From Escherichia phage EF202P1, in the sequence record OP172796.1: a stretch of 64,000 nucleotides of DNA. One strand, given 5' to 3'. A program made the translations under genes and the position numbers. Positions 21,720 to 27,264 of the stretch are shown in pieces (position 1 is the stretch's first letter; each line of letters starts with the position of its first letter). The notes below the pieces were generated by a model. It made no database searches. It saw nothing but the letters and a program-made list of their open reading frames with translations, and was not told where the DNA came from.

Positions 21720-22820
21720 TTATTCATAATCTCGTATAACCAGCCCAACAGGGAACTGTAAAGACCCCTTACGAGTCATCTTCTGGAACTGTACCGTTAA
21801 AGGTTTCCCGATAAACTCTTCAGGATGCTCAGCAAGATACTGTTTCTTCTCATGAGTAGTCTTCCATGAGACATCTACAAAGACATTAGGAAGAGTCTCT
21901 ACAACGAACTTGCCATGACCACGTTTATCTGTCTTTACACCAGTCACTTTAAACTCTTCAGTGTGCATCTTCTTGTGCTTAATCAAGAAGTATGAACGGT
22001 GACAACACTCATAGAAGGAGTCTTCAGAGATTGAACGGTACATTGCACCTTCAAACTTAGCTTCAACCCACTTATCATGAGCTTCATCAAACTCTTCCCA
22101 AGAATTTACACGACGAGACTTAACAGGAACAACTTTACAGCTGTCTCTGAAGTCATTCAATGGTGAAGTCTCAATAATATCTCTACGCTCAGGCCACGTC
22201 ATAGTACTGTCACAGATATCGTACCAGTAGAACTGGAGTAGATGTCGGTCTGGATTGTCAGCATTCTTAATCATAGACACAATATCTTCTAAGTCCCAAC
22301 CATGAGCATAAATCTCACCATCAAAGTCTTCGACTTGTGGATGCAATTTAAGCAACAAAAGCAAATCTGGGATTAGTTCTTCTGGGACGTTGTAAATAGT
22401 ATTCTCACGAGAATAAGCCGTGAAGCTAACTAAATCAGCATCTCTTGAAATTCTACAACGAACACCATCAAGTTTTGGTTGAGCATCAGCAGGGAATATC
22501 AAATACTTTGCATGACTAACCTTTGCAGCATCATGAGCAAGCTGCACACCTACCTTCTCAGTATTCTGTGCAGACTCTTTTGTGTAAGCATAACCTTTGC
22601 GGTCAACCTGCTTTTTATACTTTGCAGCAACTTCAAAGAGAGCTTGCTGTTCAGCGTTACGCTCATTCTTTTTACCGATGTTTTTAGGTTCTGCTGTATA
22701 CTCTTCAAACATCATCTTGCCATTTTCTTTACCGTAGGTTGTAATAACTTTGTCACCTACAGCAACACATGACCAGACGTTAAAAGAGCCGTCTTTATTT
22801 TGTTTGTACAGAATTGTCAT
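21720..22820 (-). CDS. ATP-dependent DNA ligase
   Basis: Adenylation motif I KLDGVRC; size about 366 aa from ATG with AGAGG RBS. Confidence 0.8.
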   Translation of the reverse strand: MTILYKQNKDGSFNVWSCVAVGDKVITTYGKENGKMMFEEYTAEPKNIGKKNERNAEQQALFEVAAKYKKQVDRKGYAYTKESAQNTEKVGVQLAHDAAKVSHAKYLIFPADAQPKLDGVRCRISRDADLVSFTAYSRENTIYNVPEELIPDLLLLLKLHPQVEDFDGEIYAHGWDLEDIVSMIKNADNPDRHLLQFYWYDICDSTMTWPERRDIIETSPLNDFRDSCKVVPVKSRRVNSWEEFDEAHDKWVEAKFEGAMYRSISEDSFYECCHRSYFLIKHKKMHTEEFKVTGVKTDKRGHGKFVVETLPNVFVDVSWKTTHEKKQYLAEHPEEFIGKPLTVQFQKMTRKGSLQFPVGLVIRDYE

Positions 22821-23013
22821 TTTTAACCTCTGAGTGATACCAAGTATTGCAAGCATTACATGCGTAAAGTTCTAAGTCATTTTTATCTGGTTTATGAAAA
22901 CAGTTTGCTCCACAGTGGCAACGAAACGGCTTTCCACCAACTGTCAGGATGAAGGATTGAACCTTTCCATCAGGAGTCCGTACAGCATTTTTATGCTTAT
23001 CTTCTTTATTCAT
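22795..23013 (-). CDS. zinc-finger small protein
   Basis: CHCGANC ... CNACN motif. Confidence 0.4.
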   Translation of the reverse strand: MNKEDKHKNAVRTPDGKVQSFILTVGGKPFRCHCGANCFHKPDKNDLELYACNACNTWYHSEVKNDNSVQTK

Positions 23014-23169
23014 TTGTGATATTGCCTTTGTCAGATTTCATATAGGACATGTTACTATGCCTTTTAATAAAATGTACAACGCATTTTGGTGTATCTTTTG
23101 TGTCTTTGATGTGCAATCTATCGAAACTGTGTACTGTGAAGGTTGCATCTGTCATTGTCTGCTTAGATT

Positions 23170-23376
23170 TCATTTTCTCTTACCACCAATCTCTACGTCA
23201 ATGACTTGAACATCACCAGCAACATCAAACTTATGAATGATGCTTTCCACAGTGTAAGTCCAACCCTCGATTCGAACCAACTCACCTTCTCGTGGGACGA
23301 TTGGGTTACGTTGAGCTACGGTTGTAGTGGAGTGAACAACATCATAACAGTAGATATAGTTTACTAGGACTTCCAT
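23170..23376 (-). CDS. hypothetical protein
   Basis: 68 aa from ATG with GAGG RBS, chosen to avoid overlap with lipoprotein gene. Confidence 0.3.
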   Translation of the reverse strand: MEVLVNYIYCYDVVHSTTTVAQRNPIVPREGELVRIEGWTYTVESIIHKFDVAGDVQVIDVEIGGKRK

Positions 23377-23386
23377 CTTGAAAACC

Positions 23387-23623
23387 TCACTCAATAACAG
23401 TAGTGTGTGATTGACCATTTTTGCCATAGCTATAAGATGTTGTTGTTTGAGAGTTTGGACATCTGACAACAACAATATCTCTGCTTATGGCATCACCATG
23501 TAACTTATAGACTTTGCAATCTTGCATCTCTGGTGGGAGGCTATAAGAAGCATTTTTGTCCTCGTAAGAGGGATTACAGCCAGATAGAAGGATAACACTA
23601 AGCACAATTACTGCTTTCCACAT
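23387..23623 (-). CDS. lipoprotein (candidate superinfection-exclusion/receptor-masking protein)
   Basis: MWKAVIVLSVILLSGC signal peptide with lipobox LSGC; AGGAGA RBS. Confidence 0.5.
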   Translation of the reverse strand: MWKAVIVLSVILLSGCNPSYEDKNASYSLPPEMQDCKVYKLHGDAISRDIVVVRCPNSQTTTSYSYGKNGQSHTTVIE

Positions 23624-23636
23624 AATACTTCTCCTA

Positions 23637-23795
23637 TTACTGTTCACGATGTTCTACTTCTCTGTACGTTCGTCGATAGTTTATAATAAGCTGTGCTAAC
23701 TCGTTGCTTTTAACATCTGAACGTAGAAGTTGCCAATCAAAACCTTTACCGACTCTTCCATACAAACTAAAGAATTTTACTTTGCGTTTCATTTT
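23637..23795 (-). CDS. small basic protein (not in ORF track, <60 aa)
   Basis: 52-aa ORF MKRKVKFFSLYGRVGKG... starting 12 nt after stop of 23810..24022 with GGAGA RBS; hand-derived coordinates. Confidence 0.3.
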   Translation of the reverse strand, partial: KMKRKVKFFSLYGRVGKGFDWQLLRSDVKSNELAQLIINYRRTYREVEHREQ

Positions 23796-24060
23796 GGTAT
23801 CTCCAATACTCAGATGTCAATGCTAATACGTTCACCCTTAAGGACTCCTGTACGGTCCCTTGCAATCTTACCGTCAACAATAAGGATATGTGCAGACCTT
23901 AAAGATTCGCCATTAAAAGCTTTTACGAACTTACAAGGCATTACCACAATAGACATCTCCTGAATCAACTCTGGAGTATAGCAATTGTCGTGAAGTTGCT
24001 GAATAACGTCTGCAAGTGTCATTTTTGATGTCTCCAATATTCAATGTCAATAAGTTCTTG
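23790..24060 (-). repeat. tandem duplication junctions of small-gene module
   Basis: CATTTTGGTATCTCCAATACTCAGATGTCAATGC (about 23793) vs CATTTTTGATGTCTCCAATATTCAATGTCAATAAG (about 24020). Confidence 0.5.
23810..24022 (-). CDS. small protein, paralogue B of duplicated module
   Basis: MTLADVIQQLHDNCY...GKIARDRTGVLKGERISI aligns with 24225..24443. Confidence 0.45.
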   Translation of the reverse strand: MTLADVIQQLHDNCYTPELIQEMSIVVMPCKFVKAFNGESLRSAHILIVDGKIARDRTGVLKGERISIDI

Positions 24061-24228
24061 TGCAATGCTTTTCAGATTACCTTTCAAGAAAACCTTCTCA
24101 GAACCTGAAAGAGATGAATTGTCAATTAACCTGTTCATTCTCTCAAACAACTTCTGCTTACGGTTCTTGATAGTTTCCTTTGAAGCACCTTTCATCATCG
24201 CTGCATGGGTTCTTCCACGGTGGCTCAT
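24019..24228 (-). CDS. small basic protein
   Basis: 69 aa, Lys/Arg-rich; ATGA overlaps with both neighbours. Confidence 0.35.
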   Translation of the reverse strand: MSHRGRTHAAMMKGASKETIKNRKQKLFERMNRLIDNSSLSGSEKVFLKGNLKSIAQELIDIEYWRHQK

Positions 24229-24443
24229 AGTAAACTCTCAATATTTACACGCTCACCTTTTAAGTAGCCTGTCTTATCTTTTGCGATTTTACCTCCAGCA
24301 ATAAAGATATCTACTCTACGTAGAACTTCAGGGTTTACCTTCAAATTCCTACAGCTACTGCAAAGAACAATAAACATCCCTTCAATCTCTTTTTGAGAAT
24401 AACCTGCACATTGCAACTGAACTTCAATCTCTGAAAGTGTCAT
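24225..24443 (-). CDS. small protein, paralogue A of duplicated module
   Basis: MTLSEIEVQLQCAGY...GKIAKDKTGYLKGERVNI aligns with 23810..24022. Confidence 0.45.
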   Translation of the reverse strand: MTLSEIEVQLQCAGYSQKEIEGMFIVLCSSCRNLKVNPEVLRRVDIFIAGGKIAKDKTGYLKGERVNIESLL

Positions 24444-24504
24444 GTGACCTCCTATACAAGATATAGTATAAGGTACTCTTCCATGAGCACCTTGTCAATA
24501 CTAA

Positions 24505-27204
24505 TTAGTGTACTTCAAGCCAGCTTTTGCCAACCTTACCAGTGCCTGTAACAAGCGTTTCTTTCTTAAGACCTAAGTTTTTAGAAGCTTGTCCATAATA
24601 CCAGTCAGTAACTGCTTTCACATCTGCCGTCATACTCTCTGGACATTCCCAACTCGTCTCGTCGTGATATGCGCAGAGCAAACGAGCACCAATAGCTGGT
24701 TGACGACCATTCAACTTCATCAAACCTTCGTCAATCATACGACGACAAGCAAGGTTAATCGCCTCATTTTGAATCTGAGCCTCTGAACCCATCAAAAGAT
24801 AGTTCAACAGCTTGTGTGGAGATTTACACCACAACCAAGCTCCAGCAACCTTTACAAAACCCCCTTTAGAGATTGCAGCGGTCTTACCAAACACCTCTTC
24901 AAGTGCCTTCTTAGTCGCTTTGTAGTCAGCTTCCAAGTCATCTAGCAGCTTCTTAATTTTAGGCAAACGAATAAAGTAAGTCTGTTTAGTCAGTGCACCT
25001 TCCTGAGTAGTTGCAGCTTTAATCGTCTTAGCAAACTTCTCGTCACCTGCACCGAACAGTAGTGCATAGATACCATTCTTAGCTTTCTTACGACCCTTGC
25101 TAATCTCATGAAGAAGGTTCTCATCCTGAGTAGCTCGACAAGTCAAGATATCCTGCTCATCATTCAAGCTAAAGTAAATACTGTTCAGTGTGTGTGCATC
25201 AGTCCCTGAATAGACAACGTAAAGGTCGTTCTCAGAGTCATAGCGAAGGTACTTATCAATCTCTGGGTTGAGGTACTCATCAAAGTGTTTGCAGTAATAG
25301 CGTCCATCTTCTTGACGAATAAACTCAATCTCTTCTTTACCTTGCGTTACCGCTTTGGTGAAGTCTTTGTCACCCATAAAGTTACAAAGAAGAACTAGCT
25401 GGGCTGAGTTCATGTCTACAGATACAACGTTAGTACCTTCTTCACAAATCCACACTGCCCTCATTGGTTCCCCATAGACAGCAGCACCAGACGGTACGTT
25501 TACAATACCATATTGTGTCATACGTCCAGTTGAAGTACCAAACACCATTGCACCAGCACTAAGGCGACCATCAGGACGAATCTGGTTCAACCAACCTTTT
25601 TCATCATCCTTTGAGTTCTCAATAGTTCTGCGTCGGTGCATCAAAGTATAGTATTTCGCAATCTTCTGTCCAAGCTCACCTTCAATCGTATCATAAGATG
25701 ATTCAGTAAGTTTTGGTGAAGTACGGATTAAACAAGGTTCAAGCAAATCTGTGTACTTCTTCACAGACCAGTTATGTTCAATGTACTGGACACCTTCATG
25801 TTCAACATAACTCAAACCGCACCGTTCAACCATCTCCTGCCATTTAGGATGCTTTGTAATCATCTTTTTGTTGTCTTTGAAGCGACAAACCTTAACAGGA
25901 CGACCATCAGAGTCTTTCTTATAGTTCCAGTCATCTGGAATCCAACCAACTGATTTCAAGTAGTCTTTAACAACTGCTACCTGAGTCATACGAGAAACTT
26001 CGAACTCAATTGGTGTATATGGTGCATCAATCAAACCTGTGTAGCGACTTGACTCAAGTTCAAAGTGGTTAACAATATGACTGTTATAGTACTTCACAGT
26101 TTTAACTGTTTTTACTGGCTTCCAGTCTTTGCATTTCTTACCAATCTTTGCGTTCAACTCATTGCAAATTGCACGAGCATCCTTCATTGCTACAAAACCT
26201 TCTTTGTACTCTTCACCAGTTACAGAGTTGGTTGGTGTATAGCAATTCCGCTTTTCAATGTTAAAAATCTTTGTAGTTGGCTTACCAAATGGCTTGATTT
26301 CGTATGTCTGCATCTCACCGTTACGTACCTGCTGACGATACTTCGTCTTAGGGTACTTGGTAATTCTCTTCAGTCCATCTGCATGACCGAATGCTTCAAC
26401 ATACTCATTCCAAGCTTTTGCAAATTCTTCTCCAGTGACTTTACCTTTAGTCTTAATAGTTGGAGGAAGATGTGGTTCAACTTCTGAAGCAAGCTCGTTA
26501 GTCAACTTGTCAAGTTCCTTTACATGAAACTCCATAAGCTCTTTATCAGCTTTCCAACCATTGATAGCTTGTTGACTCATCCAGAAAGATGTTTCTTTAG
26601 CTCGCATGTAGGTTTCATAGGTGTCTATGCCACACTTCTTTAGCTTCAGATATTCATTATCCAATGCACGTTTAGTTTTGGCGTTAATACGGATATCTTC
26701 CACAACACGAGTGAAGATTTCTGCATTCCACACACCCCAATGTTCAATCTCTGGTTTACGGACACCAACACGAGCACCCCATGCTGCCAAGCCATGAGCA
26801 CCTTTATAGCCTTTTGGAGTTGGTCTATCCATCCACTGAACACGAGACTGGATAAGAGAATCCTGAAAGAAATTACTCCACGGCTTACACTTTGGATTAT
26901 CAAAGTTCCACAAATCAGGTGCAATGTGATTGAAAACCCACCAGTCATACCCTAAACCATTATGGATGCAAAGTCGTTTTGCCTTTAACGCAAACTCAAT
27001 ACCTTCACGCAAACCACCCTTAATGTACTTGGTATACTTGTGACCGAGGATAGGCTCATCTGTAAAGACCCATACAGGTGGCTCTTCATCGTCAGATTTA
27101 TAGTCTGCGAAAGCCATTACGTGCACTTTAGTGAACTCAAGGAGTAAACCATCAGTTTCTGTATCACCAACTAAATGTAAGTTTTTAAAATCTACGTTTT
27201 CCAT
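24505..27204 (-). CDS. DNA polymerase, family A, with 3'-5' exonuclease domain
   Basis: Exo motif GDTETDGL; Pol A motifs (DMNSAQLVLL, KKAKNGIYALLFGAG, YHDE); start at ATG with GGAGGGAG RBS. Confidence 0.9.
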   Translation of the reverse strand: MENVDFKNLHLVGDTETDGLLLEFTKVHVMAFADYKSDDEEPPVWVFTDEPILGHKYTKYIKGGLREGIEFALKAKRLCIHNGLGYDWWVFNHIAPDLWNFDNPKCKPWSNFFQDSLIQSRVQWMDRPTPKGYKGAHGLAAWGARVGVRKPEIEHWGVWNAEIFTRVVEDIRINAKTKRALDNEYLKLKKCGIDTYETYMRAKETSFWMSQQAINGWKADKELMEFHVKELDKLTNELASEVEPHLPPTIKTKGKVTGEEFAKAWNEYVEAFGHADGLKRITKYPKTKYRQQVRNGEMQTYEIKPFGKPTTKIFNIEKRNCYTPTNSVTGEEYKEGFVAMKDARAICNELNAKIGKKCKDWKPVKTVKTVKYYNSHIVNHFELESSRYTGLIDAPYTPIEFEVSRMTQVAVVKDYLKSVGWIPDDWNYKKDSDGRPVKVCRFKDNKKMITKHPKWQEMVERCGLSYVEHEGVQYIEHNWSVKKYTDLLEPCLIRTSPKLTESSYDTIEGELGQKIAKYYTLMHRRRTIENSKDDEKGWLNQIRPDGRLSAGAMVFGTSTGRMTQYGIVNVPSGAAVYGEPMRAVWICEEGTNVVSVDMNSAQLVLLCNFMGDKDFTKAVTQGKEEIEFIRQEDGRYYCKHFDEYLNPEIDKYLRYDSENDLYVVYSGTDAHTLNSIYFSLNDEQDILTCRATQDENLLHEISKGRKKAKNGIYALLFGAGDEKFAKTIKAATTQEGALTKQTYFIRLPKIKKLLDDLEADYKATKKALEEVFGKTAAISKGGFVKVAGAWLWCKSPHKLLNYLLMGSEAQIQNEAINLACRRMIDEGLMKLNGRQPAIGARLLCAYHDETSWECPESMTADVKAVTDWYYGQASKNLGLKKETLVTGTGKVGKSWLEVH

Positions 27205-27264
27205 TTTTACTCCCTCTAAAATCATTAACCTCATACATTACTGCAAAAAATTATAAAAAGCAAG

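Follow-up and report, generated by a model that had tools for sequence, protein, structure and literature searches.

Two small genes of Escherichia phage EF202P1, designated here P1 and P2, are paralogues that diverged long ago within one family of small alpha/beta proteins, PHROG 4230, and lie on either side of an unrelated, separately conserved gene, O3. They were analysed in a stretch of 64,000 nucleotides (nt) of the phage DNA (sequence record OP172796.1; hereafter the window), where P1, O3, P2 and a fourth small gene, O4, all lie within the DNA polymerase-to-ligase transcription unit. P1, the copy nearer the polymerase gene, is in this lineage a single-gene cassette that may be present or absent; its slot is bounded by a conserved leader and the start codon of O3. 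With a probability of about 0.6 we read the locus as a whole as a pair of old paralogues flanking O3, of which P1 is an optional cassette, belonging to a dispensable accessory family.

Paralogous P genes around a conserved gene

P1 and P2 aligned end to end with 31 of 70 residues identical (44%, E 4e-16), and both matched the PHROG 4230 profile along their length (P1, E 7.4e-37, residues 1-72 of 72; P2, E 3e-40, over 1-69 of 72). The similarity of the two proteins, first noticed in a sequence-only reading of the window, is therefore significant, and all four open reading frames (ORFs) of that reading are present on the minus strand at the positions in Table 1. Members of PHROG 4230 are Felix O1 ORF93 (NP_944952), FO1a gp92, Bas63 gp44 (bas63_0044), Shy_0095 and Shy_0093, none with a described function; P2 was 100% identical to Bas63 gp44 and 91% identical to Felix O1 ORF93. 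These members occupy the same polymerase-ligase interval as P1 and P2, and the order polymerase, P, ligase is kept in distant relatives. Most members are single-copy, whereas the window phage has one P1-type and one P2-type gene, one on each side of O3.

The P family is confined to Felix O1-like phages (Ounavirinae). A word-indexed search of 5.8 billion clusters gave 163 matches, and all 120 listed were the two Ounavirinae types; a HMMER profile search of 1.84 billion representatives gave 11 proteins, all of the PHROG 4230-type family. The window itself is from a Felixounavirus (subfamily Ounavirinae): its segment 23300-24800 matched 253 phage records, the best being Escherichia phage EcoM2 (98.1% nt identity) and vB_EcoM_Shy (97.5%), and the Shy annotation lists all these small genes as hypothetical proteins. 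Scans of P1, O3, P2 and O4 against Pfam, NCBIfam and PADLOC (defence-side models) gave nothing above noise, a profile search against PDB sequences gave nothing informative, and the P family had no structural match among solved structures. Full-text literature searches with the identifiers (PHROG and locus tags) returned no result, and the HIDEN-SEQ paper does not cover Felixounavirus.

Between P1 and P2, nonsynonymous divergence (dN) was 0.63 and synonymous divergence (dS) was 1.66, a saturated value. Gene-wide dN/dS by the Nei-Gojobori method (NG86) within clades was 0.11 for P1, 0.15 for P2, 0.07 for O3 and 0.19 for O4, which indicates that P1 and P2 are under purifying selection. In a neighbour-joining tree the P1 clade grouped with the distant single-copy gene of locus L025 and the P2 clade with the Michonne type, and loci L023 and L024 fell outside both; this topology places the duplication before the genera (the Felixounavirus/Mooglevirus split). 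Judged from these sequences, the duplication is old, not recent or fast-diverging. The arms-race divergence that had been proposed for the pair is contradicted by dN/dS values far from 1 or more and by the saturated dS between the paralogues, and nothing at the locus points to an arms race, so that this interpretation is unsupported.

Each paralogue had also been described as coupled to a small Lys/Arg-rich ORF, the two forming a duplicated module. Both downstream ORFs are basic (Lys/Arg content 15/69 in O3 and 12/51 in O4, counted from the protein sequences) and one of them, O4 with 51 amino acids (aa), is indeed shorter than 60 aa. ATGA stop/start overlaps join P1 to O3 and O3 to P2; the overlap of P2 with O4 did not hold, since a 17-nt spacer with GGAG precedes the O4 ATG at 23792. 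Given these overlaps and the ribosome-binding sites, translational coupling within the P1-O3-P2-O4 stretch is likely. Between O3 and O4, BLASTP gave no alignment at E≤100, and their PHROG assignments differ (5180 and 2381); the duplication therefore covers a single gene and not a module. Likeness of the DNA across a two-gene unit was not found either: dS was saturated, and a 33-nt repeat (see below) brackets P2 only and is absent upstream of P1. Thus, only the P gene is duplicated.

O3 was 100% identical at the aa level in Felix O1a, Bas63 (gp45) and many other loci. In Erwinia phage phiEa104 (Kolesnikvirus) and T4-like phage CC31 its homologues have no P gene beside them, and in the more distant relatives L023-L025 P genes occur without O3. 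O3 is a separately conserved gene, an unrelated anchor between P1 and P2. Moogleviruses have P1 and O3 and lack P2 and O4. No toxin or antitoxin family matched above noise in Pfam or NCBIfam. A toxin-antidote pairing, as had been suggested, is unlikely because co-occurrence is not obligate and because the Bas63 knockouts of g44 (P2) and g45 (O3) are both viable.

PHROG 5180 (O3) reaches past the Felix-like phages, with 50-59% identity in Erwinia Kolesnikvirus, Karamvirus CC31 and Erwinia phage Cronus. The CC31 homologue (CC31p143; L027, 1995-2207) lies beside the CC31 tRNA cluster, and that of phiEa104 (L028, 2501-2707; NC_015292) is an intact 68-aa ORF left unannotated in the RefSeq record. 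The O3 tail was considered as a remnant of a P tail and this was rejected, since ELxDIE is also found in the phiEa104 homologue, which has no P neighbour.

Table 1. Features of the polymerase-ligase interval in the window
Feature	Position	Strand	Description
DNA polymerase gene	24505-27234	minus	
Conserved leader	24444-24504	minus	from DNA polymerase stop to first downstream gene
P1	24225-24443	minus	72 aa, PHROG 4230; first gene after DNA polymerase; optional copy
O3	24019-24228	minus	69-aa basic protein, PHROG 5180; between P1 and P2; ATGA overlap on each side
Repeat J	24019-24051	minus	ATTGACATTGAATATTGGAGACATCAAAAATGA; last 11 O3 codons (stop included), P2 ribosome-binding site, P2 start
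P2	23810-24022	minus	70 aa, PHROG 4230; near-universal Felixounavirus copy
Repeat J'	23789-23821	minus	ATTGACATCTGAGTATTGGAGATACCAAAATGA; last P2 codons, spacer, O4 start
O4	23637-23792	minus	51-aa basic protein, PHROG 2381; 17 nt past P2 stop; own GGAG
Four further small genes		minus	between O4 and DNA ligase in gene order
DNA ligase gene	21720-22856	minus	

The P1 slot downstream of the polymerase gene

Copy number was compared among related phages by tblastn against 50,697 phage records, with cut-offs of at least 80% identity for the P2 type and at least 60% for the P1 type. Some P gene was found in ~254 genomes. A P2-type copy was present in 217 of 254 records and a P1-type copy in ~65 of 251 related records; P2 alone accounted for ~186 (~73%), a P1-type or divergent copy alone for ~35 (~14%), and both types together, as in the window phage, for ~30-34 (12-13%). 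P1 was carried by phages of E. coli, Shigella, Citrobacter and Salmonella, and its presence followed no pattern by host.

The window proteins were mapped onto 30 loci (GenBank phages, IMG/VR and other assemblies), and relatives normally had a single P gene in the polymerase-ligase interval. In Felix O1, FO1a and Bas63 the order is polymerase, HNH endonuclease, O3, P2, O4, with no P1; in loci L007, L008 and L013 it is polymerase, O3, P2, O4; and in the window, Shy and UAB_Phi87 it is polymerase, P1, O3, P2, O4. Moogleviruses (Moogle, Silverhawkium, Sf13) have polymerase, P1, O3 and then other genes. Michonne-type phages (L020, L026) carry a mosaic P upstream of O3, and the distant relatives L023-L025 a single P between polymerase and ligase. 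Thus, P2 is the near-universal Felixounavirus copy and P1 the Mooglevirus-type copy.

Alignment of P1-plus and P1-minus loci showed an exact indel of ~216 nt between the AGGAGG of the leader and the ATG of O3. P1 was cleanly missing in L013, L007 and L008; L013 was 100% identical to the window at the aa level in the polymerase C-terminus, O3, P2 and O4, yet had no P1. The leader, ~60 nt after the polymerase stop, was kept in every one of 8 aligned loci whatever gene follows, also downstream of an HNH insert, and precedes whichever gene comes first, P1 or O3. It contains TTGACA-N22-TATACT, AGGAGG and a 9-bp hairpin at 24470-24493 (AAGGUGCUC/GAGUACCUU; -18.8 kcal/mol, z -2.2), in which a stem A-to-G change in L008 would give a G-U pair and L006 has one loop change. 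The leader could be a promoter, a processing site or a stability element. Both genera retain the leader and O3, so P1 can be inserted or deleted by homologous recombination; leader and O3 would act as homology arms through which P1 is gained or lost between co-infecting phages.

In other phages the slot between polymerase and O3 is empty or holds an HNH endonuclease gene (Felix O1, FO1a, Bas63 and many metagenomic relatives). P1 is accompanied by an HNH gene in L019 but not in the window, L001 or L006, so that any link to homing is only putative. The T4-like phages have small accessory genes in variable ("hyperplastic") regions, which are shuffled by recombination at short conserved boundary sequences. 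The P locus is like these in having small ORFs without known function that are probably coupled in translation and variably present among close relatives, and short conserved sequences (leader, J/J') at the cassette edges. Unlike in T4, the boundary is the leader and a conserved neighbour gene, not a promoter-stem-loop repeated throughout the genome; only two copies of the J motif are present in the 64 kb, and the P locus lies inside the replication operon.

The P1 slot may also be compared with free-standing HNH homing-endonuclease insertion sites (general review cited in PMC8300805); six HNH genes are known in Felix O1 (PMC3185647). The likeness is that the same slot holds an HNH gene and that the adjacent polymerase C-terminus has two divergence classes tracking one insert type; the difference is that P1 has no nuclease motif or domain match. 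In the last 231 residues of the polymerase (24505-25200) most loci were 88-100% identical to the window, and those with a 539-nt HNH insert directly downstream (L002, L012, L014, L018) were all 76-77% identical. This divergence looks like a homing-endonuclease co-conversion or cleavage-immunity tract.

The window P1 was 92.1% identical in nt to that of Mooglevirus Silverhawkium, with flanks at 86.1% and 88.4%, and 91.2% identical to that of Felixounavirus UAB_Phi87, with flanks at 94.3% and 98.6%. These values are a modest hint of P1 exchange between the two genera. In the mosaic P of the Moogleviruses L020, L026 (5001-5219; Citrobacter phage KT001916) and Michonne (NC_028247), residues 1-22 were P1-like (15/22) and the rest P2-like (~31/50). 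This gene, the only P gene of these phages, occupies the P1 slot, ahead of O3, and would be either an ancestral intermediate or a P1/P2 recombinant.

Repeats, expression and predicted structure

The DNA at the starts of the two paralogues had been thought similar. The motif cited for this, CATTTT.G.T.TCTCCAATA.TCA.ATGTCAAT, is real, with 2 matches in 64 kb (0.04 expected), but these lie at 23789-23820 and 24020-24051, which are the starts of O4 and P2 and equally the 3′ ends of P2 and O3. The P1 start is not among them, so the repeat brackets P2 and does not mark the paralogue starts. The P1 and P2 start regions share only ~14 nt (ATGACACTT.CAGA), and the sequence upstream of P1 differs from J and J'. 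J' matched J at ~30 of 33 positions, with two 1-nt indels.

Two alleles of the P2/O4 junction were seen across relatives. In type A (Felix O1-like), P2 ends in IDILELL and overlaps O4 by ATGA; in type B, that of the window, P2 ends in ISIDI, followed by GTATTGGAGATACCAAAATG, and J' is found only there. The O3 tail (ELIDIE) and the P tail (ERIDI) have a common microhomology, ATTGAYATT, for which reason J' is read as a recombination or conversion patch. The bracketing of P2 by J and J' is probably a short-patch recombination/conversion scar that arose through this O3-tail/P2-tail microhomology.

A synthetic O3-O4 junction was used as query, representing the empty site expected had P2 entered together with a second copy of J. 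Among the best 60 records none had such an empty O3-O4 site, each showing two pieces ~230 nt apart (P2 present), which leaves an origin by insertion with duplication unsupported. A scanner flagged both J and J' as sigma-70 promoters (TTGACA-N18-(A/C)AAAAT), but the -10 would overlap the next start codon, so that they cannot serve P2 or O4; the match was treated as coincidental, TTGACA lying inside ATTGACAT codons.

In Felix O1, genes 96-80 form one transcription region, and the transcript of ORF93, the P2 orthologue, is most abundant at 25 min, as are those of the polymerase (ORF96) and ligase (ORF88) genes (PMC3185647). The "early region" to which the locus had been assigned is thus imprecise. 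In the fitness sheets of the PhageMaP study of Bas63 (doi 10.1101/2024.10.10.617714), knockout fitness of g44 was +0.04 to +0.33 and that of g45 +0.50 to +0.88 in four conditions (S17, MG1655, TerY-P and AVAST type 4); the polymerase gene had -0.8 to -1.5 in three of the four sheets, and the authors take fitness below 0 to mean essential. With g44 fitness above 0, Bas63 can do without its single P gene under laboratory conditions. The P2 orthologue is thus a middle-period gene by expression and not an essential one.

The AlphaFold2 (AF2) model of P2, with distant homologues in the alignment (predicted local distance difference test, pLDDT, 92.7; predicted template modelling score, pTM, 0.77), contained helix 3-12, helix 17-21, strand 25-28, helix 38-42, strand 46-49 and strand 52-56. 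The AF2 model of P1 (pLDDT 74) had the same element order (helix-helix-strand-helix-strand-strand), and the two proteins are predicted to share one fold. In P2 a segment D56-x-T58-G59-x-L-K-G63-E-R follows strand 3. Ten residues were invariant among 33 sequences, distant members included (M1, Q9, L10, Y15, I25, I46, D56, T58, G59 and G63), and four of them sit in one conserved loop. The 114 P2-type proteins compared scarcely differed over residues 44-65; they varied mainly at positions 24, 35 and 38-43 and within the C-terminal tail. The cysteines are not conserved, which makes a zinc site unlikely. DKTG/DRTG was considered as a relic of HAD or P-type ATPases (DKTGT) and rejected, as the protein is too small, the motif is not conserved and the fold gives no support.

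Several neighbours were also characterized. O5 (23387-23623, minus strand) has a signal peptide and lipobox LLSGC and is a predicted lipoprotein; a homologue in L026 (KT001916), 74% identical, matches PF16225 (DUF4884). Its Bas63 orthologue, g42, had clearly negative knockout fitness in the PhageMaP sheets (-0.4 to -1.35), and O5 may be more important than P2 or O3. O7 (23006-23173, minus strand; 55 aa) is a presence/absence gene found, among 23 loci, only in the window, L001, L007 and L013. O8 (22795-23013, minus strand; 72 aa) overlaps the annotated ligase start and has zinc-ribbon-like cysteine clusters (CxC...C and CxxC). It is the orthologue (79% aa identity) of Bas63 g40, which the PhageMaP study reports as "more nonessential" under several defence systems and as tried as a trigger of the hhe system (doi 10.1101/2024.10.10.617714). 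Felixounavirus sequence ~96% identical to the locus was also found in the "Staphylococcus phage SA1" record GU169904.1 (147 kb; 94637-95122) and in two "Campylobacter" phage records, in all three likely by chimeric assembly or contamination.

Possible roles of the P family

Several points weigh against the overall reading given at the outset. Fitness of Bas63 g44 (~+0.2) is below that of typical non-essential genes in the PhageMaP sheets (~+0.7 to +1.2), which may reflect a slight cost of the knockout or polarity on g43/g42. No Pfam, NCBIfam or PADLOC match stood above noise, and non-essentiality speaks against a core replication role. The best 60 records held no empty O3-O4 site, and the signal of inter-genus exchange rests on only 216 nt. 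The P1 event may have been a gain or a loss, and the J/J' event may have run in either direction.

As to function, our tentative guess is that a P protein would be a dispensable partner-binding accessory of the replication operon. In the predicted fold, the invariant D-x-T-G-x-L-K-G-E-R loop after strand 3 would be the functional site, binding a phage or host partner, and the variable helix 3 (residues 35-43) with the C-terminal tail would be a surface that tunes specificity; P1 and P2 would be partly redundant specificity variants.

It is rather unlikely that the P proteins are instead anti-defence or host-takeover inhibitors, with P1 and P2 for different host variants and the conflict visible as cassette gain and loss, not as fast evolution. 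Like anti-CRISPR-like families of anti-defence paralogues, the P family is small, restricted to phages, without a matching known structure and variably present; the P gene is dispensable in laboratory hosts, its variable surface is localized (residues 35-43 and tail), and the neighbour O8 is the orthologue of a reported defence trigger. P1 is a presence/absence cassette in a hot-spot that also hosts homing-endonuclease (HNH) genes, and there is a hint that it moved between genera; such a cassette is loosely in keeping with accessory or conflict genes. Unlike those families, however, the P genes have no associated HTH regulator, selection on them is strongly purifying, and their polymerase-ligase position is conserved across diverged relatives, a pattern that fits a function tied to the module better than an anti-defence gene subject to shuffling. 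The hosts of P1 carriers are without pattern. In the Bas63 screen data for the TerY-P and AVAST type 4 hosts no defence phenotype was seen for the P orthologue: raw fitness of g44 was ~+0.2 on both, the same as on S17 and MG1655, and the PhageMaP main text does not mention g44 as a defence counter or trigger (doi 10.1101/2024.10.10.617714).

A replication accessory acting directly on the phage polymerase, ligase or helicase, with P1 and P2 matched to alleles of the polymerase C-terminus, is unlikely. P lies directly after the polymerase gene, or one gene off, in every lineage examined and is co-expressed with the polymerase and ligase genes; its knockout fitness in the PhageMaP sheets is intermediate, not fully neutral, and the polymerase C-terminus is itself mosaic among these phages. 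The presence of P1 does not, however, track the C-terminal allele (L013 has the identical C-terminus and no P1), the P gene is non-essential, and no likeness to known processivity or accessory factors was found.

It is likewise doubtful that the P family is a modulator at the replication/defence interface and that P1 is mobile between Felixounavirus and Mooglevirus through the leader and O3 arms, possibly hitch-hiking on HNH double-strand breaks. If so, carrying both paralogues would broaden the range of hosts or defence alleles handled.

The proposal with which the locus was first described, that a P gene and its coupled basic ORF were duplicated in tandem as a module and are diverging in an arms race, as an inhibitor family or toxin-antidote-like pair, is very unlikely. 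P1 and P2 are paralogous, a small basic ORF follows each, ATGA overlaps occur at two of three junctions and P1 is variably present; the lack of homology between O3 and O4, however, largely refutes it, and O3 without P, P without O3, dN/dS of 0.07-0.19 in all four genes with saturated P1-P2 dS, viable Bas63 knockouts of both orthologues and the lack of a toxin-antitoxin family match tell against it as well. The sequence-only reading was thus partly confirmed: its sequence observation was real and the paralogy holds, while the description of a duplicated module, the placement of the motif and the arms-race and toxin-antidote interpretations do not. That the similarity arose by chance or that the ORFs are not genes, for which only their small size speaks, can be dismissed given the E value of 4e-16, the PHROG matches, dN/dS far below 1 across many orthologues, occurrence in ~250 genomes, the Felix O1 transcript and the high-confidence fold prediction for P2.

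With the reading of old paralogues and an optional cassette, the picture of the locus is corrected to one duplicated gene around a conserved anchor gene, in place of a duplicated pair. As small accessory paralogues in a mosaic region of a phage genome, P1 and P2 are an ordinary case and would not surprise phage genomicists. The P family lends itself well to structure-function work, having a confident predicted fold without a solved match, ten invariant residues and natural one-copy and two-copy phages, and for Bas63, a phage without P1, a knockout library covering P2 exists. The copy beside the polymerase gene, an optional cassette, occupies a hot-spot of recombination and homing, and the locus is a small, tractable example of how conserved flanks let single genes enter and leave a phage replication operon.

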